Source of the DNA: Massalongia carnosa
Taxonomy: Eukaryota
DNA: 64,000 nt
Direction of reading: 5' to 3'
NCBI GenBank assembly: GCA_965645245.1
Contig: OZ287084.1
Location: 930,001-994,000, forward strand
Shown: piece after piece, positions 1,317 to 48,614 of the stretch
Numbering within the stretch: the first letter of the stretch is position 1
Layout of the letters: each line of letters begins with the position of its first letter
Program-made: the position numbers and the translations under genes
Notes under the pieces: generated by a model
Told to the model about the DNA's origin: nothing
Database searches by the model: none
Seen by the model: only the letters and a program-made list of their open reading frames with translations

Positions 1317-4300
1317 ATGGGCTCAAGGCTTGAAGCGAACTCCTCAGCTGTTCGTAAGAGGATTGAGAAGCATAAGTTTGACAGTGAGGAAGGGGAAGAG
1401 TATGGGTCGTCAAGGTTTGGCGGTTTTACAGACTATTTCCGCCGGAAGAAGATCAAGCTTCAGAACCTTGATGCGGAACTGCGATCCTCGTCTTCGAACA
1501 ACCCTCCAATTTTCCGAGGTGTCGTTGCGCATGTCAATGGCTACACACAACCATCGCTGAACGATCTACATACGTTGATTGTCAGCTATGGGGGAGGGTT
1601 TCAACAATATTTGGATGGCAAGACCGCTGTTACGCATATAATTGCAAGCGCTCTAACGCCAAAGAAAAAAATCGAGTTCCGACGATATCGAATCGTGAAG
1701 CCGGCATGGGTGGTTGATAGCGTGAAAGCAGGAAAATTACTACCTTGGAATGCGTATAGGGTTGTCGATGAAGGAATAGGACAAAACGTACTGGCATTTG
1801 AGAATGGAAGTGTCATCAGCCAACTGAACACGCAAACAGTCGGCTATAGGGAGCAAACGGACAATAGCTGGTATACAAAGAAGTTTAACAATGAGCTAAA
1901 TAGCGGAACGCTTGAGCCCTCGTTCTCAAGCGCTCAGCCACAACCTATTGACGATGAAGATGACGATGATGATGATGATGATGACGATGACGATGAAACT
2001 TTTCGACCTGAGCAAGATAATGCACAAGGTTATGACTCATCGCTTTTAAACATAGCAGAGCAACCTTCAGATACTTATAAATCTCATAACCCATTTAAGG
2101 GCCACGCCGTTTCACGACGAAACACGTTACGAGTAGATGAATCTGAAATTACCCCTGAGTCCGATCTATATATTTCATATGATACAATCAGCAGAGGAGA
2201 AGGTCAGGAAAATGCTGAGTATATGGATGATTCATATGCATTTCAAGATGAGAATATTCAAGAGAACAATATGGACTCACTCTTCGTTAATGACGAGGTT
2301 GCTAAAGTTAACGATAATAATAAGCAAACAAAAGTTAAATCCGAGATGACCGCTGAGGGCCATAACGCTGCTCTCTTGGCAGATCCAAGGATATGGAAGT
2401 CTACAGTAGTCAATCCTGGGTTTTTAAAGCAGTATTACGAAGAGTCCCGACTGCATCATCTTTCTACGTGGAAAGCGGATCTTAAATCACAACTCCAGGC
2501 TTTGGCGGCGGAAAAATCGTCTTCACAAAAATTGCGGGAAAAGCGAGTCCCAGGGTCCAGACGATATATCCTTCACGTCGACTTCGATAGTTTCTTCGCT
2601 GCCGTGTCCCTCAAGAAATCCCCTGAATATGTCGACAAGCCAGTTGCTGTGGCGCATGGCGGAGGCTCGGGGTCCGAGATTGCCAGTTGCAACTATCCTG
2701 CCAGGAAATTCGGAGTAAAGAACGGCATGTGGATGAAGGCCGCCCAACAACTATGTCCCGATCTCAAAGTCTTACCGTATGACTTCAAAGCCTATGAAGA
2801 GGCTAGTAGAGATTTCTATGAAGCTATTATGGATACCGGAGGGATTGTGCAAAGTGTCAGTGTGGATGAAGCGTTAGTGGATGTTAGTTCACTGTGTGTT
2901 GTAGAAGGCAGCCATGACGGTAAGGGCGTTTCTGAGGGGAGTATTTGGCAAGAACAAGCTAAGGCCGATGATATTGCTAAGGGTCTTCGTAGGGAGATCA
3001 AGCAGAAAACAGGCTGTGCCGTTTCAATAGGGGTTGGGGGGAACATACTTCTGGCCAAAGTTGCGCTGAGAAAAGCAAAGCCCGCGGGCCAGTATCATAT
3101 CAAACCGGAAGAGGTACTCGAGTTTATAGGCGATTTGCTGGTACAAGATCTTCCGGGAGTTGCGCATAGCATCGGAGGTAAGTTGAAGGAGATTGGTGTG
3201 AAGTTTGTCAAAGATGTGCGTGGACTTTCCAAGGAACGGCTGATGTCGACACTTGGACCCAAGACAGGTGAAAAGATGTGGGATTATTCGCAAGGCATAG
3301 ATCGCGTCGAGGTGGGCGAGCAGGTCGTACGCAAGTCCGTCTCCGCTGAGGTCAACTGGGGAATACGATTTGTAACCCAAGAGCAAGCGGATGAATTCGT
3401 CCAAAGTTTATGCGAGGAGCTACATAAACGCTTACTTGCAGAGAAAGTCAAAGGCCGGCAACTTACTCTGAAAATCATGAGACGTGCGGCAGATGCTCCG
3501 CTAGATCCACCTAAGCATCTGGGTCATGGGAAGTGTGATACCTATAACAAAAGTGTTATTCTAGGTGTTGCAACGGACGACAAGGAAGTTCTTGGTCGAG
3601 AAGCCATCTCAATCATGCGGGGCTGGGGCTTTTCTCCAGGGGAGCTTCGGGGCATTGGCTTGCAAGTGACAAAACTTGAACCGCTCAAGGGATCGTTGCA
3701 AAGCCCATCATTTAGCAGCCAGAAGCGTCTTCAATTTAAGATTTTTGAACCCTCCAAGGTTCTCACCCGCCGAGAGGAATTAGTTGACGACGTAGACAGC
3801 CCTCCGAAGCCGCGAGCCCCTCTTCCACATCCAGCCGCTGTACATTCGTTGGAAATGTCTCCGAGCGGGAGGCCCCGTCAACCCCTTAATACTCTCGGAA
3901 CCCAGTTTGTGCTTCCCACCCAAGTGGATCCAGATGTGCTTGCCGAGCTTCCCGAGGATGTGAGATCCAAGGTTGTGCCTCAAAACCCCCACAAGGTGCC
4001 ATTTCAGTTAAGCGCAGACCCGTTCACCGAGTCACGCTCGAACTCTCCTGCCTTGCCTCCGAATCTGTTGCCTGCTCAATCCCAGCTGGATCCAGAATCT
4101 CTGGATGCTCTTCCTGAGGACGTTCGTGCGGAAATTCTCGCATTCTACCACACATCTCCCAAGAAGGCTTCGGCGAAAGGGCTCCTACCTCAATCGCCCC
4201 GGAAGATCCGCTCCATTAAGCCCATCAACCGGAAAACCACAACACCGACGAAAAAGCGAGGAGGTCTACGTTCTCGTGGCCGCTATGGCATCAAAGCCAC

Positions 4301-4880
4301 CACGAGCTCAACTCTGACGCAGTCCAATTTCGTCGCCAGTCGTGCTCTCGATCCCGGGGACGATGATCCCGGGGAAGTTTCCGCCGAGTTTCTCTCGGCA
4401 CTACCCGAGGATATCCGCCGCGAAGTGCTCGACCAAGCGCGGCGTGACCGTCTCAAGAAGCGGGGGGGCATCGATCTCGTCACGAAAAAGCCCAGCCGAG
4501 CCACTCGCCCCACTCGCCCCCCACCTGGGCAGCGCGTTCTCCAACTTCCGCCACGGCCACCACGACCCACGTTCACGGCGGAGAGATTGAGCCGGCTGCC
4601 CGATCTACGAGACGCCGTTCATGCTTGGTTTGCGGAGTTCATGGACGACGGACCGTATGGCGAGGATGTGGAGGCGTTGGTGAAGTACTTGAGCAAGGTG
4701 GTCGGGGAGGAGGGTGACATGAGCAAAGCGGTGAGCGTGGCGAAGTGGCTGGGATGGGTGATTGACGATGCGGGAGGCGCGGGCAAGGGAGTGGCGGCGT
4801 GGAAGGAAGCACAGGCGCAAGTCGAGGAGGGGATCCAGGGAGCCATCCAGGCCAGGGGTTTAGCGAGGGTGGAATTCTAA
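1317..4880 (+). CDS. REV1: DNA repair protein Rev1 (Y-family deoxycytidyl transferase)
   Basis: Intronless 1187-aa ORF. N-terminal BRCT (VAHVNGYTQPS...KPAWVVDS), SRLHHLSTWK, Y-family motifs HVDFDSFFAAV, SCNYPARKFG and SVDEA, three UBM-like LPED(V/I)R repeats, C-terminal helical domain. Confidence 0.97.
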   Translation: MGSRLEANSSAVRKRIEKHKFDSEEGEEYGSSRFGGFTDYFRRKKIKLQNLDAELRSSSSNNPPIFRGVVAHVNGYTQPSLNDLHTLIVSYGGGFQQYLDGKTAVTHIIASALTPKKKIEFRRYRIVKPAWVVDSVKAGKLLPWNAYRVVDEGIGQNVLAFENGSVISQLNTQTVGYREQTDNSWYTKKFNNELNSGTLEPSFSSAQPQPIDDEDDDDDDDDDDDDETFRPEQDNAQGYDSSLLNIAEQPSDTYKSHNPFKGHAVSRRNTLRVDESEITPESDLYISYDTISRGEGQENAEYMDDSYAFQDENIQENNMDSLFVNDEVAKVNDNNKQTKVKSEMTAEGHNAALLADPRIWKSTVVNPGFLKQYYEESRLHHLSTWKADLKSQLQALAAEKSSSQKLREKRVPGSRRYILHVDFDSFFAAVSLKKSPEYVDKPVAVAHGGGSGSEIASCNYPARKFGVKNGMWMKAAQQLCPDLKVLPYDFKAYEEASRDFYEAIMDTGGIVQSVSVDEALVDVSSLCVVEGSHDGKGVSEGSIWQEQAKADDIAKGLRREIKQKTGCAVSIGVGGNILLAKVALRKAKPAGQYHIKPEEVLEFIGDLLVQDLPGVAHSIGGKLKEIGVKFVKDVRGLSKERLMSTLGPKTGEKMWDYSQGIDRVEVGEQVVRKSVSAEVNWGIRFVTQEQADEFVQSLCEELHKRLLAEKVKGRQLTLKIMRRAADAPLDPPKHLGHGKCDTYNKSVILGVATDDKEVLGREAISIMRGWGFSPGELRGIGLQVTKLEPLKGSLQSPSFSSQKRLQFKIFEPSKVLTRREELVDDVDSPPKPRAPLPHPAAVHSLEMSPSGRPRQPLNTLGTQFVLPTQVDPDVLAELPEDVRSKVVPQNPHKVPFQLSADPFTESRSNSPALPPNLLPAQSQLDPESLDALPEDVRAEILAFYHTSPKKASAKGLLPQSPRKIRSIKPINRKTTTPTKKRGGLRSRGRYGIKATTSSTLTQSNFVASRALDPGDDDPGEVSAEFLSALPEDIRREVLDQARRDRLKKRGGIDLVTKKPSRATRPTRPPPGQRVLQLPPRPPRPTFTAERLSRLPDLRDAVHAWFAEFMDDGPYGEDVEALVKYLSKVVGEEGDMSKAVSVAKWLGWVIDDAGGAGKGVAAWKEAQAQVEEGIQGAIQARGLARVEF

Positions 4881-5685
4881 GGGGATCAGGCGAGGAGCGT
4901 TTGCCATGTGTTTGGGTGGTCATGTCCACGATATTCCCCATGCTGCATATTACCGTCCGAGTGTTCTTGTTGTGAGGGGGGGATCCCCAGGATCGTAGTT
5001 TACTCCGACGTTGGTATATTATAGTCCATAAGTCGGCCAGTTGATGGACCGAATCCCGGGAATCAACGTCTTTCGAAGAGCATGACCGAGTTTCCTCGGT
5101 GGCTTGGCTCTTGGTACGTCGATGGGTTTAGTTTCCATGGAATGACTCCGAAACACGCAACCCGATCTGTTCCGGAAACCATCCGATTTGCTTCATCCCC
5201 ATTCAAGCAACGATTGGCTCTGATCCGCTGACGCTCGTTTAGTGTTTCCCTCTTTGTTGACGCTTAGACCTTCTCCTGTCGGCTATCGTTGCCCGCTCGT
5301 AGTGTTTGCCGTTCTCGAAACGGAATGCGCACACGAATGCGGTCAGCCACGATCTGCATCCGTGACAGCCTCCAAGCTGAGTTGAGACGAAAGCGTCTTT
5401 CTCGATTTGCTGTTCTGATTGGTGGCATTGAACGGACGGAAAAGGAATTGGGCTTGCGCGGGGATGAACGAAAGCACAACAAGGGGGGAGTGCCCGAGTA
5501 CAAGCGTTGGCATTCTGGGATCCCTTCCTTCTCGTCCTTTTATTTACTTTCTGACTCATCATCTTTCATCTTCAATCTTCAATCTTCAATCTCCATCTCC
5601 ATCTCCATCTCCATGATTGAATCACGCGGGCGATGACCTTGTCGATGCATCTTCCCGAACCATCTCGGCTCCCCGGCCCCACGTC

Positions 5686-10764: not shown

Positions 10765-12094
10765 ACCTAATTATGCTAGAATAGTATTAAGTTGTCCTCT
10801 TGGATGCCCATTCCCCATTGACAACTCTTCTCCCCTTGAAATGTCGGTTTCTGGACTCCTTACTCCGTACATCTGTTTTTTGCGGCTAAAAAGCTAGGTC
10901 TTCCGAAAATAACATCAAGGCTGGCGGAAGAAACTGAATATTCCATCAGGCTCGCCAACCTGACACTTCAATGTTCAGGCTGGGACTGCCCTAGACTGCT
11001 TGGAAAATGCTTCACTCGTTTATGTAACTCTTCCCCGCATTTTCATCCAAGCTTTTAGCTTGGATCCGCGTGGAGTGATCTTTTGTTGCTATCCTTTGTC
11101 AGGCATATTGGATGGTGAAGCACTGCGTTTGACCACAGCCTTTCCAACATCGCCTCCAAGCCAATCCTATCCCACCCACTTTACCGACCTCCATGTATGG
11201 GGATTACCTGGATGAAAACCCTCGTTTCATGGATTTGAACTCAGAGCGAATGGCGGCGAAGTGGCTGCTTATGACTGTTAAAATGGAATTGACACGTGGA
11301 TTTCCCTGAAGCCGAAGACTCGGCTATTGTGTGTTGAAGGTCGAAACTACTGATGAAGAGTGGATATATTGTTGATAGTAGTTTGGTGAGCTTGAAGCGA
11401 CCGATTATATCTCGCATACCTAGGTTTTTTACCGCTTAAACCACGATGTCTTAGCTAAACGCCGAAAATTCCAGTTGATAACGATGCTGCACGGTCAAAA
11501 ACAATAGCTCTGGGACAGCCTCGAGCGCGGCATGCTCCATTTTCTCCATGAACGAGCGTGTTTATTACTACCGTGCCACACGAGCGGGAAGAGCAAAACG
11601 CATCCCTCGACGCATGACACATCCAAAACCATGGCTTGCTGGCTTTGCCGCAGCCACTGTGTTTGAACTCCGCATTTAGCGTTCAGGTATATTTTGCATC
11701 TGCGTGAACTCGTTGATGGTCTTTTGGGGTCCGTATTTGCATTCGGTTGAATATGTACGCAAGTGCCGTTGACAGGCTGTGCTCCTAGCAGCCCTGAGAT
11801 TTATTATTATTCAAGCCATCAGGCTGCGTAGATAACAGGTTCTTGGATCATAGCTTTTTTCCTATTGCAATCGAGTTTGGATAAGTTACAGATGCTGCAT
11901 GTTCTGCGGCATGCACATGGTTATAGTGTTGGTTATGCGGCTTGAACATCAATAGTATTGAGATGGTTTAATTAATCCCTTATAAAAGGACAATGGCCAC
12001 ACGGGCTGAAGAAAATCAGATTGGCTGCAATCTCCATTTTCTGCTTCTGCTTCTGCTTCTGCTCGAGCTACATGCGAACTCCTGACTTTCAAGA

Positions 12095-32258: not shown

Positions 32259-34521
32259 ATGGCTAGGCGATCACGGGGAGGCTCTTTTCCCTTCGCAATG
32301 TCAAGCATCTTCTACATTTTCCTTGTCTTCATCGCTACTTTCGCTCTGGTACATCCTACCAACGCACAAGAAGATGAGCAGGCCCCTTTACGGGAGGACC
32401 TTGGAACGGTCATTGGTATTGATCTCGGGACCACCTATTCGTACGTCCTTGCTAAGTCAATCAAGCGACAACGTGTATGTGCTAACACGTAGCTGCAGTT
32501 GTGTTGGTGTGATGCAGAATGGAAAAGTCGAGATCCTGGTCAATGATCAAGGGAACAGAATAACGCCCTCCTATGTGGCCTTCACTGATGAGGAACGATT
32601 GGTGGGAGACGCAGCAAAGAATCAATATGCTGCTAACCCTCAAAGAACTATCTATGATATCAAGTGAGTATCTCCTTGACAAGCCTCTTGTTTCTATCCG
32701 AGATCAAATGCTAAGATTTGGGACTTAGGCGCTTGATTGGCCGTAAGTTTTCAGACAAGGATGTCCAGGCCGATATGAAGCATTTCCCTTTCAAAGTCAC
32801 AAACAACGATGGTAAACCCGCTGTTACAGTCGAGGTGGCTGGCAAAGATCGGTCGTTCTCGCCCGAGGAGGTCTCGGCCATGGTCCTCGGAAAGATGAAG
32901 GAGATCGCCGAGAGTTATCTTGGAAAGAAAGTGGAAAACGCTGTCGTCACCGTTCCAGCATATTTCAACGATAACCAAAGACAAGCTACCAAAGACGCCG
33001 GCATAATCGCAGGTCTGAATGTTCTCCGCGTCGTCAATGAGCCCACTGCGGCTGCTATTGCTTATGGTTTGGACAAGACTGGTGACGAGCGCCACATCAT
33101 CGTTTATGACTTGGGAGGAGGAACCTTTGACGTGTCCCTTCTCACAATCGATAACGGCGTGTTTGAGGTTCTGGCAACAGCCGGTGATACTCATTTGGGA
33201 GGTGAGGATTTCGATCAGCGAATCATTAACTACTTCGCCAAGCAGTACAACAAACAACACAACGTCGACATTACCAAGGACTTGAAGACAATGGGTAAAC
33301 TCAAGCGTGAGGTCGAAAAAGCTAAACGTACCCTGTCCTCCCAAATGTCTACACGCATTGAAATCGAGTCTTTTTTCAAGGGCAAGGATTTCTCCGAGAC
33401 GCTTACCCGGGCGAAGTTTGAAGAGCTTAATTTGGACCTCTTCAAGAAGACCCTGAAGCCAGTTGAGCAAGTGCTCAAGGACGGAAAGAAGAAGAAGACC
33501 GAGATCAACGATATTGTTCTTGTCGGTGGATCTACCCGTATTCCCAAGGTTCAATCGTTGTTGGAAGACTATTTCGGTGGCAAGAAAGCTAGCAAGAACA
33601 TCAACCCTGATGAAGCTGTTGCCTTTGGTGCCGCCGTCCAAGGCGGTGTTCTGTCTGGAGCTGAGGGAACCAAGGAGATCATTCTCATGGACGTCAATCC
33701 ATTGACCTTGGGTATCGAAACCACTGGAGGCGTGATGACCAAATTGATTCCCCGCGGCACCAGCATCCCCACTCGCAAGAGCCAGATTTTCTCGACGGCT
33801 GCTGATAACCAGCCTGTGGTCCTCATTCAAGTTTGTAGGTTCATCGAAATCTCCTATCAATATATACCTTTGCTAATAAAATACTAGTCGAGGGTGAGCG
33901 AGCCATGACCAAGGACAACAACTTACTGGGTAAATTCGACCTCACTGGCATTCCTCCCGCTCCTCGTGGTGTACCTCAGATCGAAGTCTCGTTTGAACTG
34001 GACGCCAACGGAATTCTGAAAGTGACCGCCGGTGATAAGGGCACAGGCAAAGCCGAGTCTATCACCATCACTAATGACAAGGGACGCCTGTCTCAGGAAG
34101 AGATTGATCGCATGATTGCCGAGGCTCAGGAATTCGCCGAAGAAGATAAAGCTACATCCGAGAAGATCGCCGCTCGAAATGGACTTGAGAATTACGCCTT
34201 TAGCTTGAAGAATCAGGTAGCTGACGAGGAGGGTCTTGGTGGGAAGATCGACGAGGATGACAAGGAAGCTGTAAGTTCCGTTAAACTAGTACATGTAGCT
34301 GCATTCTGCTGATGTACTACTCGTAGCTTTTGGACGCTGTCAAGGAAGCCACCGAATGGCTCGAGGAGAACGCTGCTACCGCTACCACCGAAGACTTCGA
34401 GGAGCAGAAGGAGAAGCTGAGCAACGTAGCGTACCCAATTACCAGCAAGCTTTACAGTGGTGGGGAGGCGCCCCCCACCGAGGAGGATGACGGTGAGCCC
34501 GGCGGACATGATGAGCTATAG
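32259..34521 (+). CDS. KAR2: ER Hsp70 chaperone BiP
   Basis: Signal peptide, [20 protein letters not shown] and C-terminal HDEL. Introns 32441-32498, 32664-32728, 33835-33887 and 34271-34326 restore the frame. Confidence 0.98.
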
Positions 34522-34689
34522 AAGGTGGTCTCGCATTTCCCTGGGGTTTTCATTTAAAGTGTCTGGAGATAGATAGAAAGGCGTATGTTCTGCACTTCAT
34601 CCTTTAGCAATCTCTCCAGTAAAGAGACAAATGTAGATTAGAAGTGTAAAGAATCTATTTTGCGGTCCAAACGATGGCGCATGCAGCTA

Positions 34690-37600
34690 TCTATATAGTA
34701 CTGAAAGAGTTACCCTGCTACTTTGGGCAACACTACCTCATTCGGTTAGATCAAACCTCATGCGGTTAGATTTAACCCGAAAAAGGGAACGCAAGTAACA
34801 ATAATCGGGGGAGGACCGTCGTGCGGACAGGACCGAAAACTCCCCTCTTGCCTCCACCGTACCGGACCGTTTCACTTCGTCAAACTTTGTAGAGTCATGG
34901 ATCATGATGATATCAATAAGTATCGTGAAATCTACGTTCTTTTACGCCCGTTGTGGGTCGAGAAAGGTGGTCGGCTTTCGCGTTTTTCATGGTTTGATGT
35001 TCCGGAAAACCGCGCTAAATCCGTCCGTTCGACGAACCCGCAAGAAACCTCGATTTGGTTTAAAGCAAACTTAATTGAGTTTACGATGACTTTTACAACA
35101 ACGCGTTATTTGATATTTTTTTGATTTGCAATAAACAATCATCTGAAGCTTTGGCAATAGCTGCAACGACCACAATCATGTCTCTACAGCCTAACGCTTC
35201 TCCGCGAGAAGTTCTTTCTCGACTTCTCATTCCTTTACGACAATCGGGTTCTCCCCGCAGATCGCATAACGAAGTGGATTCTTCGGAAAATCCTCCTGCC
35301 AAGCGCGTTCGTCTTATTTTGCGACCACCGAAACGTCCTGTACGTCTTTTTCTGCGTCCACCTGCTCCCCCGAAAAGTCCGATTATATCTGCTGTCGCTT
35401 CTACGTCTTTACAGAGTCCGCTTGACAGTTCAGTTGGGGGGTCCGTTTCTCCCGTATCATCGGCTTTTCATTCGCCAATCTCGCCAAACCGGAATGATTT
35501 GGAATTGGAAAACTCAAACATTTGGGAAGAAATGCTGCTCAACGAAGCAGAAGCGGGTCAGAACAACGATCTCGATCGTGGATCCGTAAGGTCGAGTTCC
35601 GAATATCTTTCTCCATCCGTTGCAAGTTCGAGAGCTGTTTCTCCACTTGCTAATCATCAAGAGCCACGAGGAAATCGTCAAACACGTCGTCACGAGCGTA
35701 CTGTTACAGCCCGTAGGCGTGCGACTGCACATCGTGACTTTCCTGCGACATTTAAAAGTCAATACACATTGGAATCCGCGATACGACGAATTCAACACAT
35801 GACCGATCATTGCAGACACTGCGGTGCATGGCATTGGGAAGCGGAAGCCGTTCGGAGCTCTTCTAATGGAGTATACGAAACCTGTTGCAAGCGAGGCGAT
35901 GTCGTGTTGCCACCGTTTCAGCCTCCCCCCGATTTTTTACAGCGGTTGTTAATTGGTGACGATACTAGAAGCCGTACATTCCGCAAAAACCTGCGAAAAT
36001 ATAACTCCGCGCTAACGTTTACCTCCGTAAACTATAAACCCGATCGCCGACTTCCTCGCAACGGTCGTGGACCGATATGTTTTTAAATTCACGGAGAATT
36101 ATATCATTTGCAAGGTCTTCTTGACCCCGTTGATGATTCTCCTCGATTTGCTCAATTGTTTTTTTACGATCCCGCCGAGGCAACCGCGATTCGTACTCGA
36201 CAACACGAAGAATTAAATCCGGATATTGTGCGACGATTGACAGAAATGTTGCATGATCTAAATCCCTTTATCGGACTCTACAAGACCGTCAGCGAGGCCC
36301 TGCGAGAAATACGGCTACCATCAATGACTTGCGAATTGTTCTTAATCCGCAAATGCGATTAATAATGGAGGCGGGAGCGGATCGACGACGAAGCAATCTT
36401 CCCACCAGTGACGAGATTGCCGGTATTATTCCCGATGAATACGGAGAACCTTGTAAACGCGATATTGTGTTAACGGAACGTGTTGCGGGAGTTACGGGAA
36501 CTTCATTAAAACGAATTGATCAAAATCATGCGGCCTATATGCCTTTGCATTACGTTCTTTTTTTTTCCGCATGGCGAACATGGCTGGGACTGGAGTATGC
36601 GACTTCGGTCCAATGCCAGAGCGAGACAACGAGATCGTTTATGTCAACTGGCGTTTTACAGGTATCGTTTACACACCCGTCGAAATGAATTTTCTATTAT
36701 GCATCACTGTCAGCGATTGTTTCAGCAATATTTAGTTGATGCATGGTCCAGCTGCGATCTTAACAAACTGCAATGGCTTCGAGAAAATCAAAAAACGATC
36801 AGAGCGGAGCTGTATAGCGGACTTGCGGATAGTTTGCGACGGGATGAAGTTGATTCTGCGGCCACCTTAGGAAAAAGATTTATTCTTCCTTCTACATATA
36901 CGGGTGGTGATCGATTTATGCAGCAATTGTTTCAGGACAGTATGGCCTTGGTTCGTCATTTCGGACGCCCGGATTTGTTTATCACGTTTACTGCAAATCC
37001 CAATTGGTCGGAAATCAAAGAAGCCTGAAAGACTTTCCCGGGCAGACCGCAACGGATCGTCCTGATATCGTGGCCCGCGCTTTTCGTTTACGGCAGAGCA
37101 GTTTGTTGCAGGAGTTGAAAAATATTCGGACGGCCGCGAGCTGTTATATCAAGATTTTCCGAATAGCTACGTTTGGGAAGCTAAGAAAAATGCTGGCAAC
37201 CCCGTCAACGCGGATTTGCAGTTGGCCGTATTTATGCCTGCAGCCCCATGGCGGGTGAGAAATATTATTTACGGATGCTTTTGACCATTGTTCCGGGGCC
37301 GCAGTCTTTTGAGGATCTGCGCACTGTTGATGGAGTAGTTTGTTCAACCTTTCAGGCCGCTTGCAGTGCTCGAGGTTTACTGGAAGATGATCAAGAATGG
37401 ATCAGTTGTTTTGCGGAAGCGGTGCGATTTTCTTCTGGACACGCGTTGCGGGCGTTATTCGGAACGGCTTTAGTTCACGGTCATGTTACGGACTCCACGG
37501 CCTTATGGATTCGATACGCAAATGATATATGTGACGATTTGCCGCATCGATTACGATCAATGACTGATGTTCCTGACGATTTAACGACTCCGCATTTGGA

Positions 37601-39570
37601 TTACGGTCTGTATTTATTAAACGAAGTTCTTTCGGATCTGGGGAAATGTCTGCAGGACTATAATATGCCTTTGTTTACACACGATTGGGGTCGGAGTACT
37701 GGAAATCCTTTAATTGCAAATGAAATGACTTACGATTTTAACGAAGAAACGTCTTTACGAAATGAACGATATACTCAGCTGAATGCGGATCAGAAACATT
37801 GTTTTGATACCATTGTTGCGGGAATTACGGGGCATCCTAGATCGGCGCATTTTTTTGTTCACGGACCTGCAGGAACAGGTAAGCCCTTTTTATATAAGAC
37901 TCTCTGCAATCATTTTCGGGCGGAAAACAAAATAGTTTTATGCGTTGCATCTTCTGGCATTGCGGCTTTACTTCTTCCTGGCGGACAGACTTCGCATTCC
38001 CGTTTTAAAATTCCATTGATTTTAAACGAAGATAGCGTTTGTAACATCACCCGCAACACGCATTTATACGGTCTTTTGCAACGCACGACGTTGATTATTT
38101 GGGATGAGGTGCCGATGCAACATAAACAATGTTTCATGGCCGTGCATCGCACTTTTACGGATCTTTTAGGCAACGACGATCTTTTCGGAGGCATTCCGAT
38201 GGTGTTGGGAGGCGATTTCGCTCAAATCTTGCCCGTTGTCCCTCGCGGAAACCGTGAAGCTGTCGTTGCGGCGAACATTCAAAAGACCTTCCTGTGGTCG
38301 CGCTTTCAAAAACTGTTTCTGCGTTCAAATATGCGAATTCGTAATGGGGTCGCCAACGAAGCGTTTGCGGACTGGATCGGGAAAATGTCTTACGATCCTG
38401 CTTTTTATGGTCGGATTCAGTTGCCGAAACAGGTCAATCAATTGAACAACTTAGACAGTTTCGTGGACACTGTCTTTCCTCCGGATCGCATGCGGCAAGC
38501 TCATCTGGACCCGGGTTTTTTTGCGAGTCGAGCAATCTTAACTTTGCGAAACGATATCGTCGCGGATTTAAACGATTCAATACTGAACAGATTGCAGGGC
38601 GATTCGCACATCTTGAATTCCGTTGATCAAATCGAGAACGATACGGCGCAGGAACGAGGAGACTTTCTTCCTCCCGAGTTTTTACGGACCTTGCAAACAC
38701 CGTCTTTGCCTCCTTCACAATTGCAATTAAAACTTGGAGCTCCGGTTATATTGATGCGGAATTTATATCCCAAACTTTGTCTCTGCAACGGCACAAGATT
38801 ACGTCTTACTCACATTTCGCGGACCTGTCTGGAGGGAAAGATTCTGGGAGGAGAATTCGACGGCGAAACGCGATTAGTCCCCCGCATTCTTCTCAATACC
38901 ACCGAAGGCGAGCTGCCTTGGATCGTAAGTAGTAAACAATTTCTGATACGATTATGCTTTGCTATGACTGTAAACAAGTCGCAAGGACAATCATTAGACA
39001 CGGTAGGAGTTGATTTGCGAGCTTCGCCTTTTACTCACGGTCAGTTGTATGTGGCATTATCTCGAGTTACGGATGTGTCGCGATTGTGTGTGTTGTTTCC
39101 GGAACGGGGCGATGGGAAAACTGACAACATTGTGTATCCGGAAGTAATCCTGCGACCCGAATATGAAGCTGAATCTTGAATTTCTTAAATATTCGTTGCA
39201 ACTTATTCAAATATTAGCGAGACATGTCATGTACAACTGCAATCAAAACATGAATGGAAATCGATTTATTGAAAACTAATTAAACTATGTTCCGGTATCT
39301 TTGCAGGTCTTTACTGATTGTATCGAGCTGCAAACTCATCATCAGAGGTCAAGAAGTTCTGATCATCATTATCTTCGCATGCCTGCGACTCAACCTCAAA
39401 AAGATGTGCGAGGGCCTCGAAATGAAGACTAAGATGCTTAGAACGAGTTGTTCGTATTAAATCGTCAGCTACTACGATTCGTATGTAATATATAATTTCG
39501 CGAGTTTTCGCAACCGTAATTTGTAAAGAAATTACTCGAAACATCTCAGATCTGAGATGGCACGGTCTCG
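34690..39570 (+). mobile_element. Helitron unit 1 (RepHel-bearing, defective)
   Basis: Starts A|TCTATATAGTACTGAAAG and ends with the palindrome CATCTCAGATCTGAGATG + GCACGGTCTCG. Contains RepHel. Confidence 0.92.
35178..39179 (+). pseudogene. Helitron RepHel (Zn-binding N-terminus, partial Rep, Pif1-type SF1 helicase)
   Basis: Motifs CRHC...CCKRG, FAQLFFYDP, PDLFITFTANPNW, EKYYLRMLL, GPAGTGK, IIWDEVPM, GGDFAQILPV, AMTVNKSQGQS and HGQLYVALSR. Stop at 36084 and frameshifts; HUH/Y2 core absent at ~37122. Confidence 0.95.
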
Positions 39571-42500
39571 TCTATATAGTACTGAAAGAGTTACCCTGCT
39601 ACTTTGGGGCAACACTACCTTATTCGGTTAGATTGAACCCGGAAAAGGGAACGCGGCTTGCGGAACAGTACTGAATTATCAAATAATGCGGGGAGGACCT
39701 CCCTGCGGACAGGACCAAAAATTCCCCTCTTGCCTCGACCGTACCGGACCGTTTCACTTCGTCAAACTTCGGAGATCAACTGATCCTGTTGATATCAGTC
39801 CGTATCGCGAAAACTACGTTCTTTTACGTTCGTTGTGGGCCGCGAGAGGTGGTCGTTGTTCGCGTTTTTCATGTTTTGATGTTCCCGAAAACTGCGCTAA
39901 ATCCGTCCGTTCAATGAACCTGCGAAAACCCTCGATTCGGTTTAACGTAGTCTTAATTGGGTTTAGCATTAACAATTATCTGATCTCTTCGCAACAACAG
40001 CAACGACTACCGCTATATCTTTGCACTTCTCCTCGAGAAATCGTTTCTCGACTTCCCATTCCGTTACGACAATGGTGTTCTCTCCGTAGACCGCATAATA
40101 AAGTGAATTCTCCGGAAAATCCTCCCGCAAAACGCGTTCGTCTAATCTTACGACCACCGAAAACGTTGTTAGTCTTTTCCTGCGTCCGCCTGCTCCTCCA
40201 AGAAGTTCGATTGTATCTCCTGTCACTCTTCTATCTTTGCAGAGTTCGCCTAACAGTTCAATAACGAATTCCGTTTCTCCCGTATCGTCGGCTTTCCACT
40301 CGCCAAGCCCGCCAAATCGAAATGATTTGCAGTTGGAAAATCCGAACATTTGGGAAGAAATGCTGCTCAACGAAGCAGAAGCGGGTCAGTACAATCACAA
40401 CCGAGCTCGCGGTTTCGTAAGGTCGAGTTTCGGACATATTTCTCCATCCATTGCGAGTTCCAGACCTGTTTCTCCACCTGTTAATCATCGTGAGTCACGA
40501 AGAAATCGTCGAACACGTCGTCGCGACCGTACTGTTGAAGCCCGTGACCATGCGGCTGCAAATCGTAACTTTCCTGCCGCATTTAAAAGTCAGTACACTT
40601 TAGAATCCGCGATACAACGAATTCAACACATGACAGATCATTGCAGAAACTTGCGGTGCGTGGCATTGGGAAACGGAAGCTGTTCAGAGTGACAGAAGAC
40701 GAGATCGAGTATACAAATCCTGTTGCAAGCGAGGTGGTGTCGTGTTGCCACCGTTTCAGCCTCCTCCTGATTATTTACGGCAACTGTTAATTGGTGACGA
40801 TATTAGAACCCGCACATTTCGCAAAAACCTCCGAAAATATAATTCCACGTTGACGTTCACCTCCGTAAACTACAAACCCGATCGCCGACTTCCTCGCAAC
40901 GGTCGTGGACCGGTATGTTTTCAAAATCACGGAGAACTGTATCACCTGCAAGGTCCTTTGGATCCCGTCGACGATTCTCCTCGCTTTGCTCAACTGTTTT
41001 TTACGATCCCGACGAAGCAACCGCGATTCGTACTCGACAACATACAGAATTGGATCCCGATATTGTACGACGTTTAACAGAGATGTTGCACAATATGAAT
41101 CCCTTTATCAGCCTTTACAAATGCGCCAGCGAGGCTTTGCGGGAGAATGCGGCCACAACCGATGATCGTCGTGTTACGGATCCTACGGCCTTATGGAATC
41201 GATACGCAAATGATATATATGACGATTTACCGCATCGATTACGATCAATGACTGATGTTCCTGACGATTTAATGAGTCCGCATTTAGATTACGGCCTTTA
41301 TTTGTTAAACGGAGGTCTTTCGGATTTAGGAAAACGATTAGAGGATTAGAATATGCCGCTGTTTACATACGATTGGGGTCGGAGTACTGGAAATCCGTTG
41401 ATCGCAAATGAAATTGTGACGAAGCGAGAAGTAAATAGATTTCTACCATTGCGCCATCTGTCCTCCCGACCAAAAGGCACAATACTTAGTCCGCAGACCA
41501 AGCTCTATTCTACTATAACTGGGACTCCTGCTTTGTTCGCTGTAGGTCCTGCCGTCCGCACCACGCATGGTCGAACCGTTACAGAAATGACTTACGATTT
41601 CAACGAAGAAACGACGTTACGAAATGAACGATATACTCAATTGAATGCGGATCAGAAATACTGTTTTGATACCATTGTTGCGGGAGTTAGAGATTATCCT
41701 AGAATGGCGCATTTTTTTGTTCACGGACCTGCAGGAACAGGTAAGACTTTTTTATATTAGACTCTTTGCAATGATATTCGGGCGGAGAATAAAATCATTC
41801 TTTGCGTTGCGTCTCCCGGCATTGCGGCTTTACTTCTTCCTAGCGGACAGACTTCACATTCCCGGTTGAAAATTCCTTTGATTTTAAATGAGGACAGCAT
41901 GTGTAATATCACCCGCAACACGCATTTACACTGTCTTTTGCAACGCACAGCCTTAATCATTGGGGATGAGGTGCCGATGCAACACAAACAATGCTTCATG
42001 GCCGTACATCGCACTTTTACGGACCTTTTAGGTAATGACGACCTTTCGGAGTTATTCCGATGGTGTTAGGCGGAGATTTCGCTCAAATCTTGCCCGTTGT
42101 TCCCCGTGGAAATCGGGAAGCCATCGTTGCGGCGAACATTCAAAACACCTTCTGTGGCCGCGATTTCAAAAACTGTTTTTGCGTCAAATCATGCGAATTC
42201 GTAACGAAGTCGCCAATGAGGCGTTTGCGGACTGGATCGGGAAAATGTCTTATGATCCTGCTTTTTCCGGTCGTGTTCAGCTACCGGAACAAGTCAATCA
42301 ACTGAACAACTTAGACAGTTTCGTGGACACCGTTTTTCCTTCCGATCGCATGCGGCAAGTTCATCTGGATGCGGATTCTTTCGCAAGTCGAGCAATTTTG
42401 ACTTTGCGGAACGATATCGTCGCAGAGTTAAACGGTGCAGTACTGAATAAATTGCAGGGCGGTTCGCACACCTTGAACTCCGTTGCTCAAATAGAGAACG

Positions 42501-43371
42501 ATACGGCGCAGGAACGAGGAGACTTTCTTCCTCCCGAGTTTTTACAACCCTTGCAAACATCGTCTATACAACCTTCACAATTGCAACTGAAACTTGGAGC
42601 CCGAATCATTTTTTTGCGGAATTTGTATCCCAAACTTGGTCTCTGTAACGGCACCCGATTACGTCTTACTCACATTTCGCGGACCTGTCTAGAGGGAAAG
42701 ATTTTGGGATAAGAATTCAACGGTGAAACGCGATTAATTCCCCGGATTCTTCTTAATACCACGGAAGGCGAGTTGCCCTGGATCATAAGTCGCAAACAAT
42801 TTCCGATACGATTGTGCTTTGCTATGACTGTCAACAAGTCGCAAGGTCAATCATTGGACACGATAGGAGTCGATTTGCGAGCTCCTCCTTTTACTCATGG
42901 TCAGTTATATGTGGCATTATCTCGAGTTATGGATGTGTCTCGATTGTGTATGTTGTTTCCGGAACGAAATGACTGGAAAACGGATAACATTGTATATCCG
43001 GAAGTAATTCTGCGATCGCAACATGACATGATAACTCATGTTCCTCCGAATCCTGCTGTAAGTTTATGATGATATAGGGTATCATGTCACTTAGAAAATG
43101 TATTCAATTGCAAAATAGACAGCAAGTTTATTGTGTTATCAAAAATTTATCGTCCGGGTCATCAAGTGTGACATTTTCCGCTAATTTCGCAAGTCGTAAG
43201 TTTTAGAAAATTTAAGAAAAGTTTTCAATTTTTCGATTTCAATCCTGAAATTAAATAGATAATTTTTTTATTGCATACGTGGTTTTAAATTTACAACCTT
43301 TTACGAATTGCATCGATCGTAAAAACTTGAAACCGGTTCCAAAATCTCAGTTCTGAGATGGCACGGTCTCG
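39571..43371 (+). mobile_element. Helitron unit 2 (diverged, internally deleted RepHel copy)
   Basis: Same termini as unit 1 and homologous to it, with a large deletion at ~41168 and several stops/frameshifts in the helicase (e.g. 41758, 42710). Confidence 0.92.
41415..41583. mobile_element. Solo LTR-like insertion (169 bp)
   Basis: TGTGACG...CGTTACA termini with 5-bp TSD GAAAT (41410-14, 41584-88). Absent from the homologous site in unit 1 (~37722). Confidence 0.85.
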
Positions 43372-43804
43372 TCTATATAGTACTGAAGTAGTAATAATGC
43401 GGAGAGGACGTCGTGCGGACAGGACCAAAAACTCACCTCTTGCCTCCACCGTACCGGACCGTTTCACTTCGTCAAACTTGGTAGTTCAACTGATCCTGTG
43501 GATATCAATCCGTATCGCGAAAACTACGTTCTTTTACGCCCGTTGTGGGCCGTGAGAGGTGGTCGTTATTTGAGGTTTTCATGTTTTGATGTTCCCGAAA
43601 ACCGCGCTAAATCCGTCCGTCTAACAAACTTGCAAAAAACCTCGATTCGGTTTAACGTTGACTCGATGTAGTTTAGTGTCGATTATGTCAACATTATAAT
43701 TTTTTTGTTAACGCGTTGCTACTTCATCATTTACTTCATCATCTGCTTCATCTATTTCATAATTTATTTCAATCATTATTAATTACTGGCTATTCAATGA
43801 TGTT

Positions 43805-45100
43805 AGTGGTAGACACAATGTGGTCTGGCAGGTAGACAAAAGGTGGTCTGGGTGAGGGACAAAAGGAGGTCTGGGTAATAGACAAAAGACAGTCTGGCAG
43901 GTAGACAAAAGGTAGTCTGGGTGATAGACAAAAGGTGGTCTGGGTGGCTGGGTGATGGACAAAAGTTGGTCGGGCAGGTGGTCTGGCAGGTGGTCTGGAG
44001 GATGATCAAAAGGTGATGTAAGTGATAGACAAAAGTTGGTCTGGCTGGTGGACAAAAGGTGATATTAGCGGTAGACAAAAGGTGATCTGGCAGGTAGGAA
44101 AAAGGTGGTCTGGGTGATAGACAAAAGGTGGTCTGGCAGGTGATCTGGATTATAATCAAAAGTTGATATGAGGGATGGACAAAGGTGGTCTGGCAGGTGG
44201 ACAAAAGGTAGTCTGGCAGGTGGTCTGGCAGGTGGTCTGGCAGGTGGACAAAAGGTAGCCTGGCAGGTGGTCTGGCAGGTGGTCTGGACGATGATCAAAA
44301 GGTGATATGAGGGGTAGACAAAAGGTGCTCTGGCAGGTGGACAAAATGTGGCCTGACAGGTGGACAAAAGGTTATATTAGTAGTGGACAAAAGGTGGTCT
44401 AGATGATGGACAGAAGGTTGTCAAAAGGTGGTCAAAAGGTGGTCAAAAGGTGGTCAAAAGGTGGGCTAGACGATGGACAAAAGGTGATCTAGGTGATGAA
44501 CAAAAGTTGGCCTGACAGGTGAAAAAAAGGTTATTAGTGGTGGACCAAAGATGGTCTGGGTTATGATCAGAAGTTGGTCAAGACGATGAACAAAAGATGA
44601 TATGGACGATGGACAAAGGATGATATAGACGATGGACAAAAGATAATCTGACAGGTGGGCAAAAGATGATCTGACAGGTGGACAAAAGATGATATGGGAG
44701 GTGGAAAAAAGGGGATCTGAATAGTGATCAAAAGGTAGTCTGAGTGAAGGTAAAAAGGTGGTCTTGCAGGTGGACAAAATATGATATGAACGTTGGTCAA
44801 TAGATGATATGAGTGATGGACAAAAGATGATATGAATAGTGGTCAAAGAGGGTCTGAATGATGGACAAAAGGTGATCTTGGTGATGATTAAAAGGTGGTC
44901 TGGATGATGATCTGTCAGTTGATCTGGACGATGGACAGAAGATAGTCTGGAGGGTGGACAAAAAGTAATACGGGTGACAATCAAAGTGTGATCAGGGTAG
45001 TGGTCAAAAGGTGGTCAGGACGGTGATCAAGAGATGGTTTGGATGATTGACAAAAGGTGGTCTAGATGGTAGATAAACGGTGTTCTGGGTAGCAGACAAA
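43805..45100. repeat. Complex minisatellite (GGTGGTCTGGCA / GACAAAAGGT units)
   Basis: Dozens of degenerate 11-23-bp units inside Helitron unit 3. Confidence 0.9.
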
Positions 45101-45352
45101 AAAAATGTCGAGGTGGAATTTTCAGGGAAAAAAGGGAGGTTATTTGAAAAGTGGCAGAGACTATTTGAAGGCTATTTAGGAGCTAGATGTGGGGCCTTAT
45201 TACAATCAGCGGAGGCTATCTGGGAGACTATTTGAAAGATGCTTTGACAGATACTTTGGCGGGTGTCAAGGAGGAGATGGCGCAGGGCCGTTGCGGAGCG
45301 AAGCGGAGCAGGTCCGGAGCAGAAATCCGAGATATTTTGAGATTCGCATGAA

Positions 45353-45406
45353 AAAATAGCAAGCCAAATAGCAAGCCAAATAGCAAGCCAAATAGCAAGC
45401 CAAATA
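45353..45406. repeat. 12-bp tandem repeat (AAATAGCAAGCC)
   Basis: About 4.5 copies, against ~1.5 at the homologous position in unit 4. Confidence 0.85.
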
Positions 45407-45463
45407 GTAAGAAAATGAAAAGTAGTAGCAAATTAATCTCAGGTCTGAGATGGCACAGTCTCG

Positions 45464-46982
45464 TCTATATAGTACTGAAAGAGTTCCCCTGCTACTTTGG
45501 GCAACACTACCTCATTCGGTTAGATCCAACCTCATGCGGTTAGGTTTAACCCGAAAAAGGGAACGCGGCTTGCGGAACAGTACTGAGTTATCAAATAATG
45601 CGGAGAGGACGCCGTACGGAAAGGACCAAAAAGAGGCACCTCATTGCGAGCATGCATTTCATCGTATGATATCGTAAAACTTTGCAGACCTACTAATCAC
45701 ATCAACCATAGTCGATATCTCGAAACTTGCGTGCTTTTTCGCCCGTTTGCGGTGGGGGGAGGAGGTCTCTTTGCGAAGCATCAGATTTTCTTTGAAATCG
45801 TCCATAAGAGATTTAGCGCGGACTCGATTGGGTTTACGGTGCTTTTCGTGTTATTTACCTATCATCGCAGCTCTTTTCATCCTAGCCTTTTCATCGCAGC
45901 TCCTTTCACCGCTGAATATCAACGTGAACTCGATACAGGAATATTAACGGAAGATACTTTGACGAAAAAAATTGACGATGATATAGATAAGACTCGAGAC
46001 GGACGAGCTTATAATCACGTCAAACGATATATAATAGAAAATCGGGTTGGAAGGGAGAAAACGGAGTCGATTAATTTTACGCTTCTAGAGTGTCTCATTA
46101 TCGACAGCTTCGAGAAAATAGACGAATTCAAGATGCACGAGACCAAAAAGCTAAAGAAGCTATGCGAAAAGCGGCGGAAAAAGAAAATTGATAACGAGGG
46201 AGATAGATATTGAGGCTATTCAAGAGGCTATCTGATAGCTATTTGGGAAATTATTTGGGAGACTATTTGAAAGGCTATTTGAAAAGCAGCGGAGATTATC
46301 TGGGAGACTATTTGGGAGGCTAATTGGAAAGCTATTTGGGAGGCTATTTGGGATATTATTTGATAGCTAAGCAGAATATCTGGAAGGCTATTTGGGAGGC
46401 TATTTGGAAGACTATTTGAAAGCGGTGAAGATTATCTAGGAGGCTATTTGGGAGGCTTTATGCGAGGCTTTATGCAAGGCTATTTGAGATACTATCTGAA
46501 AAGCAGCGGAGACTATTTGGGAGGCTATTTGATAGCTATTTGGGGGAATATTTGGGAGACTATTTGGGAGATATTTGAGAGATACTTGGAAGATAATTGA
46601 AAGGCTATTTGGGAGGCTATTTGAGAGGCTTTTTGGGAGGCTTTTGGGAGGCTTTTGGGAGGCTATCTGGGAGACTATTTGAAAAGCAGCGGAGACTATT
46701 TGAAAGGCTATTTAGGGGCTAGATGTGGGGCCTTATAAAAATCAGCGGAGGCTATCTGGGAGACTATTTGGAAGATGCTTTGACAGATGCTTTGGCGGGT
46801 GCCAAGGAGGAGATAGCGTAGGGCCGTTGCGGAGCGAAGCGAAGCATGTCCGGAGCAGAAATCAGAGATATTTTTGAGATTCGCATGAAAAAATAGCAAG
46901 CCAAATAGTAAGTAAATGAAAAGTAGTAGTAAATTAGATTTTTTCATTCGAAACATCTCAGGTCTGAGATGGCACTGTCTTG
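45464..46982 (+). mobile_element. Helitron unit 4 (non-autonomous)
   Basis: The 5' ~140 bp match units 1/2 and the 3' ~290 bp match unit 3. Ends CATCTCAGGTCTGAGATGGCACTGTCTTG|T. Confidence 0.88.
46213..46775. repeat. 12-bp minisatellite (GGCTATTTGGGA-like)
   Basis: Degenerate tandem copies inside unit 4. Confidence 0.88.
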
Positions 46983-47182
46983 TCTAACGTATTGGGTCAA
47001 TGTAACCGATTGATCCATTCTCAAATTCTCCTCCTTTACGTTTGTCTGTTGGGTCACAATCGTCTGTAAATGTCTTTGGTGTTAGGTATTTCCAGGGGAA
47101 GGTTCCTCCGCCTGCAGGGCCCGGTTTCCCGACGCTCAAAAACAGTCACGTCTTTAGCTCTATCACGAACTGCCACTTAGAA

Positions 47183-47234
47183 ACGCGCCAAGAATTGAAC
47201 CACGCGTTGGATGGTATAAAACCCCCCTTCGCGT
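47183..47234. promoter_or_regulatory. MCB-like (ACGCG/ACGCGT) cluster upstream of UNG1
   Basis: ACGCG at 47183, ACGCGT at 47202 and CGCGT at 47230, all within 200 bp of the ATG. Confidence 0.45.
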
Positions 47235-47372
47235 ATTGCCTTATTCTTCTCATCGCTTCATCCAGTCCCACTAACCTCCCTCCCTCCATTCATTCACGCC
47301 TGGCTACCTCTTCCAAAGAATCAAAGAGAGTCCAGAGAAGGAGAAAAACAGGAGCACTGCCGGTACAGAACA

Positions 47373-48614
47373 ATGTCTGCCCCACTGAAACGCAAAGCCC
47401 CCGGCCTCGCGGCCCCCGTGAAAAAACAAAAGGCAAACGCAAGCATCACGTCTTTCTTCTCCTCTCCTTCCTCTACCGCACCTCTCCCCTCCGCTACTTC
47501 TATTTCCGCCACCCTGGGCAGCCCTGGATCCACCCTCTCAGCCACCACTTCTATAAACCCGGCGCCTCCACCGCCAAAGTTTGACAAAGAGAAATGGGCG
47601 GCCAAGCTCACACCTGAGCAGCGCTCACTCCTTTCCTTGGAGATTGCAACCTTGCATGAAAGCTGGTTCTCAGCGCTGCGGGATGAGCTAGTCAGCACGG
47701 AGTTTTTGGATCTCAAGCGGTTTTTGGAGAAGGAGAAGGAGGCTGGGAAAGCGATTTTTCCGCCGGAGAAGGAAATTTATACTTGGTGAGTGCTTGCAGC
47801 TTCTTCGAGCGGGTTTTGAAGATTGGGTTGGGAGCGGTTGAGACCCATTGAGTGCTGGACAAAGATGAAATTCCGTTCGTTCATCATTGCCGAAGTAGCT
47901 AACTAAACCTTTCCACCCCTATCAGGTCTCAACACACCCCTCTCCCTACAGTCAAAGCCGTCATCCTGGGCCAAGACCCCTACCACAACGTCAACCAAGC
48001 CCATGGTCTCTGCTTCTCCGTACGCCCACCTACCAAGGCTCCATCGTCACTATTGAACATGTATATTGCACTCAAGAAGGACTACCCATCTTTCCAACCC
48101 CCGCCTAACAACGGCGGGCTCTTAACCCCCTGGGCCGATCGCGGTGTACTCCTGCTGAATACGTGCTTAACTGTGCGCGCGCACGAGCCGAACAGCCATG
48201 CGAAAAAGGGCTGGGAGCGCTTCACGCAGAAGGTCATCGATGTGGTGGCGAAGACACGGTCGAGGGGCGTAGTGTTTTTGGCATGGGGAACGCCGGCCGG
48301 AAAGAGGGTGGCGAAGGTGGATAAGGTGCGGCATTGCATTCTGCAAAGCGTACATCCTAGTCCGTTAAGCGCTTCCAGGGGTTTTGTAAGTTGTTTCTTT
48401 CTCTTCGTCCCCTTTGCATGCAGGTCGGGCTGGAAGATTAGGATAACTTAACGTGATCGAGAACGGGGCGGCTAACGACCTCGTGTTTTCCAACCCCGTC
48501 TAGTTCGACTGCGGCCATTTCAAGAAGACCAACGAGTGGCTGAAACAGCGATACGGCGACAATGGCGAAATCGATTGGGACCTCAACGTCCCTCCTGCTG
48601 AGGCGGGGGTGTGA
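47373..48614 (+). CDS. UNG1: Uracil-DNA glycosylase
   Basis: GQDPYH, GVLLLN and HPSPLS motifs, plus PIP-like QKANASITSFF. Introns 47786-47925 and 48386-48503. Confidence 0.97.

Follow-up and report, generated by a model that had tools for sequence, protein, structure and literature searches.

How Helitrons choose a target beyond the A-T dinucleotide is poorly understood, and arrays of these elements are usually ascribed to rolling-circle concatemers. Precise head-to-tail joints of unlike Helitrons are already in print. Du et al. (2008) described two unlike maize elements lying precisely head to tail across a G/T joint with no host A between them and concluded that the insertions had been consecutive, weighing both orders, including insertion between the host's A and the resident element's T, and leaving the choice undecided (PMC2267711). 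The same paper notes that perfect joints of this head-to-tail kind had been seen in bats by Pritham and Feschotte. Chellapan et al. (2016) reported three tandem copies in Metarhizium acridum as well as multiple 5' termini (PMC5148889), and a preference of maize Helitrons for inserting near or inside other Helitrons is cited by Dong et al. (2011) (PMC3288121). Here we describe a stack of four unlike Helitron units in Massalongia carnosa (assembly GCA_965645245.1, contig OZ287084.1), found within a stretch of 64,000 nucleotides covering positions 930,001 to 994,000 of the forward strand; this whole stretch is referred to as the window and all coordinates count from its first letter.

The maize pair differs from this array in having two units rather than four and CTAG rather than CTYG ends, and its occupancy was determined by polymerase chain reaction from several lines (PMC2267711), whereas occupancy of the window's array was read from contigs and is all-or-none. 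The M. acridum copies are, like those in the window, a fungal tandem, the likeness of the three copies to one another not being stated in the accessible text, whereas the termini and target (TNAT|A) of FoHeli are non-canonical, unlike those seen here (PMC5148889). By description the units can be likened to HELPO2 of Pleurotus ostreatus (Castanera et al. 2014, PMC4289320), which inserts at A-T, starts with T[C/G] at its 5' end, has a subterminal hairpin and ends in CTTG like the fourth unit; the accessible part of that paper makes no mention of stacking. In Helraiser, cleavage falls exactly at flank|TC and its determinants lie in the terminal 40 nt; the circle joint serves as a transposase substrate, and the target bias is most pronounced on the 3' side (PMC4778049). 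The joint between right and left terminal sequences in the Helraiser circle is the same as the joints in the window (PMC4778049, PMC5876387).

Four unlike units with identical joints

The array consists of four Helitron units of 4881, 3801, 2092 and 1519 bp, all on the + strand, designated E1 (34690-39570), E2 (39571-43371), E3 (43372-45463) and E4 (45464-46982). No spacer separates them at the three boundaries (39570/1, 43371/2 and 45463/4), each of which reads GTCTCG|TCTATATAGTACTGAA, joining the right terminus of one unit to the left terminus of an unlike one on the same strand. The 22-nt joint string GTCTCGTCTATATAGTACTGAA starts at 39565, 43366 and 45458 on the + strand and is found exactly three times in the window versus 0.00 times expected from 100 shuffles, which bears out the claim of an earlier note on this DNA that four unlike Helitrons abut at identical junctions. 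The outer edges read gcagcta|TCTATATAG on the left (34689/90) and GTCTTG|tctaacg on the right (46982/3). The monotonic fall in size pointed out in that note is also as described; four units would show such an order by chance in 2 of 24 arrangements, and it is not general in the related stacks discussed below.

All that the four units have in common is an invariant left end of 16 nt and a hairpin-bearing right end of about 28 nt. The left terminus TCTATATAGTACTGAA (34690-34705, + strand) has four exact matches, the other three at 39571, 43372 and 45464, and occurs nowhere else in the window at up to 3 mismatches. The right terminus (46955-46982, + strand, delimited by alignment and folding) comprises a hairpin, 11-12 nt and then CTYG, with equivalents ending at 39570, 43371 and 45463; at up to 3 mismatches its 20-nt form is found four times in the window, always within the array. 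The hairpin is present in 4/4 units, with a stem of 5-7 bp and a 4-nt loop 11-12 nt from the end, and folds with z-scores of -1.0 to -2.3.

These features place the units among the canonical Helitrons in most respects. All four begin with TCTATATAG and hence with the canonical 5' TC, the outer flanks (...GCTA| and |TCTAACG) indicate insertion between A and T without target-site duplication or terminal inverted repeats (the exact empty site is unconfirmed), and E1 retains the domains of a RepHel protein (Rep nuclease plus Pif1-type helicase). The 3' ends depart from the canonical CTRR, being CTCG in three units and CTTG in E4. Helentrons or Helitron2 elements are marked by asymmetric terminal inverted repeats, a T-T target and often an endonuclease domain. 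That identity was ruled out by the lack of a terminal inverted repeat, by the A/T target and by Pfam domains limited to Rep and helicase; the sole inverted repeat reported in the array is internal (30 nt, 73%). Ends in CTTG are also known from HELPO2 (PMC4289320) and from maize and de novo Helraiser ends (PMC4778049).

Outside the termini the kinship of the units is patchy. E1 and E2 are 82.8% identical (2947 matches and 614 mismatches, comprising 396 transitions and 218 transversions), and as this substitution spectrum is symmetric a process resembling repeat-induced point mutation was rejected as the source of their divergence. E2 is a deletion derivative from a diverged subfamily, as judged by alignment to E1, lacking E1 positions 1641-2790 (1150 bp, the Rep region) and having a broken helicase frame. 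By sequence comparison E3 and E4 are non-autonomous and share only parts with other units: the 5' region of E3, which carries a 23-bp minisatellite at about 43806-45068, is 87% identical to E2 positions 97-396, and E4, which carries a 12/24-bp minisatellite at 46210-46681, matches E1 at 97% identity over its first 103 nt and E3 at 92% over 244 nt of its 3' region. A homogeneous concatemer of near-identical units is not what is seen here, 82.8% being the value of the best whole-unit pair. This value, together with an array-free contig described below, upholds the view that the units are independent family members and not copies of one another.

Stacks and edge sequences in a related family

The window's right terminus ATCTCAGNTCTGAGATGGCACNGTCTYG has no exact match in the metagenome, genome and viral contig collections, and the window's own family is therefore absent from those three collections. 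A protein-based scan yielded a related family in 79 metagenome loci (783,861 nt) with RepHel proteins 43-57% identical. Units that look complete are present among these loci, for example in L018, L048, L060, L065 and L068. The termini of these relatives were found de novo because those of the window occur nowhere meaningful in the 79 loci at up to 3 or up to 5 mismatches. Related left termini, TC..ATATGTACTG..., resemble the window's TCTATATAGTACTGAA, and related right termini are canonical, with a hairpin and CTAG. Using a library of 34 right-terminus variants seen at joints in the related loci we located 98 right termini, and the RepHel strand carries 97 of these. One of the 98 was a false match inside an open reading frame (ORF) and was dropped, so that 97 were kept. 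A left terminus TC..ATGTACTG follows directly after 69 of these 97, or after 71 when two with a slightly mutated left terminus (L037, L075) are included, and the remaining 26 (25 unique) adjoin other DNA.

Where both members of a neighbour pair were at least 400 nt long the partners were unlike in 65 of 66 cases, as they are in the window, whereas circles and concatemers join an element to itself. Near-identical RepHel units with different right partners were found in L013 and L014 (99.965% over 2820 nt) and in L052 and L053 (99.6% over 5491 nt), and such joints have therefore been made repeatedly and recently. Shared host flanks with different stack content were seen in only one allelic pair (L068/L071). 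The mixed stack of four units in the window is thus typical of this clade, and the locus is one more ordinary case of an arrangement already on record. At 4474-8668 of L070 two 2097-nt units, 100% identical and ending ...CCAG, lie head to tail, the only concatemer-like tandem among the related loci. In L068 a solo RepHel unit lies between similar 25-nt stretches at 5300-5347 and 11106-11146, GTACCGTGGGAGCTGCTTGATTCGG on the left and GTACTATGGGAGCTGCCTGATTCGG on the right, and may have entered a short tandem of terminus-like repeats.

The DNA at the right edges of these stacks imitates a left terminus. Of the 69 true left termini of the related family, 68 have a GTA[CA] that begins at position 8-10. 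All 25 unique right-edge flanks have T at +1, GTAC starts at +7 to +10 in 8 of them versus 1.39% of AT sites in the loci (binomial, 1.2e-9), and [GA][TC]AC is present in 16 of the 25 versus a background of 5.4%. In the right-edge flanks the best match to ATGTACTG at natural offsets has a mean score of 4.64, versus 3.48 at 116,157 background sites (Mann-Whitney, 1.3e-6), with background-like scores of 3.3-3.6 at shifted offsets. Beyond this the flanks show no homology to Helitron 5' regions, most being unique in the related data set, and no right-terminus mimicry was apparent by eye at the left-edge flanks of the related family.

A comparable sequence borders the array in the window. The host flank TCTAACGTATTGGG (46983-46996, + strand) imitates the left terminus with TCTA followed by GTATTG, which matches the GTACTG core at 5 of 6 positions after a spacer 2 nt shorter. 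Motif counts at AT sites show that the combination in TCTAACGTATTG of TCTA with five of six core positions occurs at 0 of 7116 other AT sites in the window, each part alone being present at about 1.4-1.5%. We considered the right flank as a decayed fifth unit and rejected this, the 109 nt to the right of the array not being significantly Helitron-5'-like (66 to 299 of 300 shuffles scored at least as high). No report of left-terminus mimicry at Helitron targets was found in the open-access text of the literature searched.

Occupancy, coding capacity and host setting

Five public sequencing runs contain the stretch, and four of them (X1, X2, X3 and X5) were compared using short-read contigs, of which the longest pieces were listed. 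In the lichen-metagenome run X1 one contig of 41,965 nt matches 34000-34689 with 3 differences and 47092-47600 with 2, has 167 letters of its own between these flanks and carries no array, its left break falling exactly at the predicted 5' boundary. The array is absent on this contig of another strain. As the flanks differ at 5 of 1199 positions, the 17% divergence of E1 and E2 was not acquired in place. None of the contig pieces listed covers 46983-47091, which is absent, diverged or unlisted, and the empty site GCAGCTA|TCTAACG reconstructed in the earlier note was consequently not confirmed, since the contig resumes at 47092 among the pieces listed.

Summed contig depth over E2-E4 greatly exceeds that over the flanks, and over much of E1 it is about double, this depth not being a copy number. 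A 1212-nt contig of X3 covers 39050-39573 without a difference, ends its match 3 nt (TCT) past E1 and continues for 688 letters not listed as E2; it may represent a second copy of the 3' part of E1 elsewhere, with a flank that also starts TCT, although unlisted pieces are possible. A loose end in X5 at window position 46976 belongs to a contig from another locus, in which a right-terminus variant is followed by TCTGAGGTACTGAGG..., and joints in X2 from 45579 to 45464 and from 34755 to 45464 place 5' fragments of 116 and 66 nt before a fresh left terminus. Insertions of Helitrons next to and inside Helitrons seem common in these genomes. The 5' end of E3 (43372-43410) looks as if a deletion had joined the terminal AGTACTGAA to an internal copy of that motif, such a copy lying about 105-125 nt into E2 and E4; one contig each in X1, X2 and X3 joins 34789 to 43393, which fits undeleted relatives elsewhere. 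Relative to E1, alignment shows a 169-bp insertion in E2 (41415-41583, 174 alignment columns), where many contigs of all four compared runs start or stop with heterogeneous flanks (loose ends at 41415, 41430, 41464 and 41583). This suggests a separate small repeat, for which scans of the array and window gave no Rfam family and no tRNA match.

The RepHel gene of E1 is defective as judged by Pfam, tblastn and a motif scan. E1 keeps the N-terminal region (Helitron_like_N, 2e-38, profile positions 1-129 of 191), Rep motif I and a full Pif1-type helicase (complete PIF1 match, 3.1e-66). Its closest full-length relative among 1.84 billion representatives searched is P0001, a protein of 1389 aa that is 51% identical over the helicase. 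P0001 carries both the HUH motif (GLPHAH) and the tyrosine motif (KYMFKY) within residues 446-733, a segment with no match in E1 by tblastn; by eye, frame 1 of E1 resumes near residue 705. No HUH or Y..KY motif was found in any of the six frames across the whole array, and neither E1 nor E2 has the intact HUH and catalytic tyrosines in one frame that would mark an autonomous Helitron. E1 also has an in-frame stop (36084-36086) and frameshifts, one of which, at about 36558, lies in a T run (36550-36566). Dropping one base there would fuse the ORFs 36257-36685 and 36510-37025, and because the base at 36558 is missing from every X2 contig covering the run, and from part of the X1, X3 and X5 depth, this frameshift may be a homopolymer error of the assembly. 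The two RepHel carriers announced in the earlier note thus amount to RepHel remnants in E1 and E2, neither able to encode an active nuclease. With E1 and E2 defective and E3 and E4 non-autonomous, all four units rely on a transposase encoded elsewhere.

The array begins 168 bp downstream of the stop codon (34519-34521) of an Hsp70 gene, identified by a Pfam match and exon translation, whose KAR2-like end (34501-34521, + strand) reads GGHDEL-stop. It lies upstream of a gene with a UDG-domain ORF (47903-48451, Pfam). The HDEL end of the Hsp70 and the UDG domain make KAR2 and UNG1 reasonable labels for these neighbours. An uninterrupted REV1-type ORF of 1198 aa with BRCT, IMS, UBM and REV1_C domains is present at 1284-4880, and the REV1-type, Hsp70, EF-Tu-like GTPase and UCH genes indicate that ordinary fungal-type, gene-rich DNA surrounds the array. 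No further family copies were found by BLAST in the 64-kb window.

Origin of the stack

We think it somewhat likelier true than false that four separately derived non-autonomous units were stacked by integration 5' of left-terminus-like sequence. An active RepHel encoded elsewhere would mobilise four members of one fungal Helitron family in trans, each unit integrating immediately 5' of DNA that its transposase takes for a left terminus. The first arrival would have used the host pseudo-terminus TCTAACGTATTG as this target, and later arrivals the genuine left terminus of a resident unit. The ...CTYG 3' end of the newcomer would then be joined to the TC 5' end of the resident, giving the same joint as a Helitron circle and keeping one orientation. 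Two parts of this account are inferred: the transposase would nick targets that resemble a terminus, and the units would have come singly. If the transposase inserts 5' of terminus-like DNA, resident elements would be its best targets and mixed stacks of one orientation would result. Every left terminus, as well as the right-edge pseudo-terminus, would be a possible target, and so the order of the units need not be chronological. In the prokaryotic elements IS91 and IS608 a single-strand HUH nuclease relies on one and the same recognition to cleave ends and to choose targets, and the targets are short tetranucleotides. We draw on these as an analogy for the origin of the stack and claim no membership. 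Site-specific integration is described for IS608 (PMC5876387).

A number of points weigh against integration at terminus-like targets. The GTAC motif test was framed after the flanks had been seen, the ATGTACTG 8-mer score having been fixed beforehand, and the mimicry statistic comes from the related family, the window's own offering one right flank only. Among the 25 related right-edge flanks C at +2 is found in only one. Flanks starting TC with the core would have counted as joints under the scoring rule used, and the lack of C at +2 argues that the right-edge flanks are imitations and not stubs of real termini. It also leaves the A|TCTA rule of the earlier note unsupported; of the broader idea that each insertion regenerates a self-like target, the left-terminus mimicry at right edges, in the related family and in the window flank, stands, and the specific TCTA does not. 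In the related family 9 of 16 left edges are preceded by A and 7 by G (15 of the edges lie on the + strand, one on the minus), and because G precedes so many, some of these left edges are probably joints with unrecognised right termini; at least one G-preceded edge, in L018, follows a variant right terminus of hairpin plus CTTG. At the locus itself, the array-free contig of X1 resumes at 47092 and not at 46983 among the pieces listed, with 167 nt in place of 109. Occupancy is moreover all-or-none, X1 having no units and the runs of organism A all four as far as the contigs show, so that one event explains the locus more cheaply than four.

Assembly is a further point. The three internal joints lie in repeated sequence and none is bridged (by 31 nt) by a listed short-read contig, as would also be the case if a repeat-rich region had been mis-joined at shared termini, and at least one window base, in the T run near 36558, differs from every X2 contig there. 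We regard such an artefact as very improbable, however, since an X3 contig covering 46951-47600 spans the right outer boundary (reaching 32 nt into E4), contigs of X2 and X3 fall just short of spanning the left outer boundary (28 nt), and joints of this kind turn up 71 times in metagenome contigs that were assembled independently. Head-to-tail joints would likewise be expected if one element had long ago formed a rolling-circle concatemer whose units then diverged and underwent deletions where they stood, and the tandem in L070 is a true case. For the window this explanation is close to refuted: where alignment is possible the units differ by 13-21%, and elsewhere they cannot be aligned, whereas the array-free contig has so few differences in its flanks (5 of 1199), and the similarity between pairs varies widely, from 97% to none.

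The all-or-none occupancy would be expected if a pre-built composite had been inserted once, either by read-through of three terminators from the left terminus of E1 to the right terminus of E4 or from a mixed circle. Terminator bypass and circles are both established for Helraiser (PMC4778049), L058 and L074 in the related family share a block of a RepHel unit plus 2.35 kb of its right neighbour at 96-97%, and the fact that X1 differs over 34690-47091, and not only over 34690-46982, among the pieces listed would fit a transduced 3' tail. There is however no CTYG end at 47091, and the X3 contig described above hints at the 3' part of E1 without E2 behind it, unlisted pieces again being possible. 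A composite would still need joints between unlike elements, so the question is merely moved, and we consider a single event improbable, although the all-or-none occupancy keeps it a live rival for this locus. An equally doubtful alternative, a special case of the stacking that we favour, is strict leftward growth in which newcomers enter only at the boundary between a host A and a left terminus, making E4 the oldest unit and E1 the youngest. The canonical A|T rule favours the left edge, as the internal joints and the right edge are G|T; the left flank of the array is A, and the terminus-like sequence stands 3' of the insertion points. Of 1751 Helraiser insertions, 46 were at non-AT sites (PMC4778049). 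If the rule of A at -1 also holds at mimic sites, growth would occur only at the left edge and the order of arrival would be recorded. The four runs gave no intermediate unit number, however, so that the nested states (units 4, 3-4 or 2-4) looked for on the suggestion of the earlier note were not seen. RepHel units in the related loci occur at left edges, inside stacks and at right edges. The nearest-copy identities of adjacent RepHel units show no consistent direction either (closer copy on the right in 3 pairs, on the left in 3 and equal in 2), although as a proxy for age this measure is noisy and suffers from biased sampling, RepHel having been the basis on which the loci were selected. The two maize elements could likewise not be ordered (PMC2267711).

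The window and the 71 joints of the related family show that in one fungal clade arrays mostly mix unlike elements. Such stacks are easily mistaken in annotation for single long elements with multiple termini. More tentatively, and with the chances somewhat against it, we propose that the transposase of this clade nicks 5' of T-N6-8-GTAC(TG)-like sequence by left-terminus mimicry, and that most copies consequently come to lie in mixed stacks of one orientation that act as self-propagating safe havens. Terminus mimicry is the part of this analysis worth following up: imitation of the left terminus at the right edges of stacks provides a concrete and testable rule of target choice, which could explain the clustering of Helitrons.

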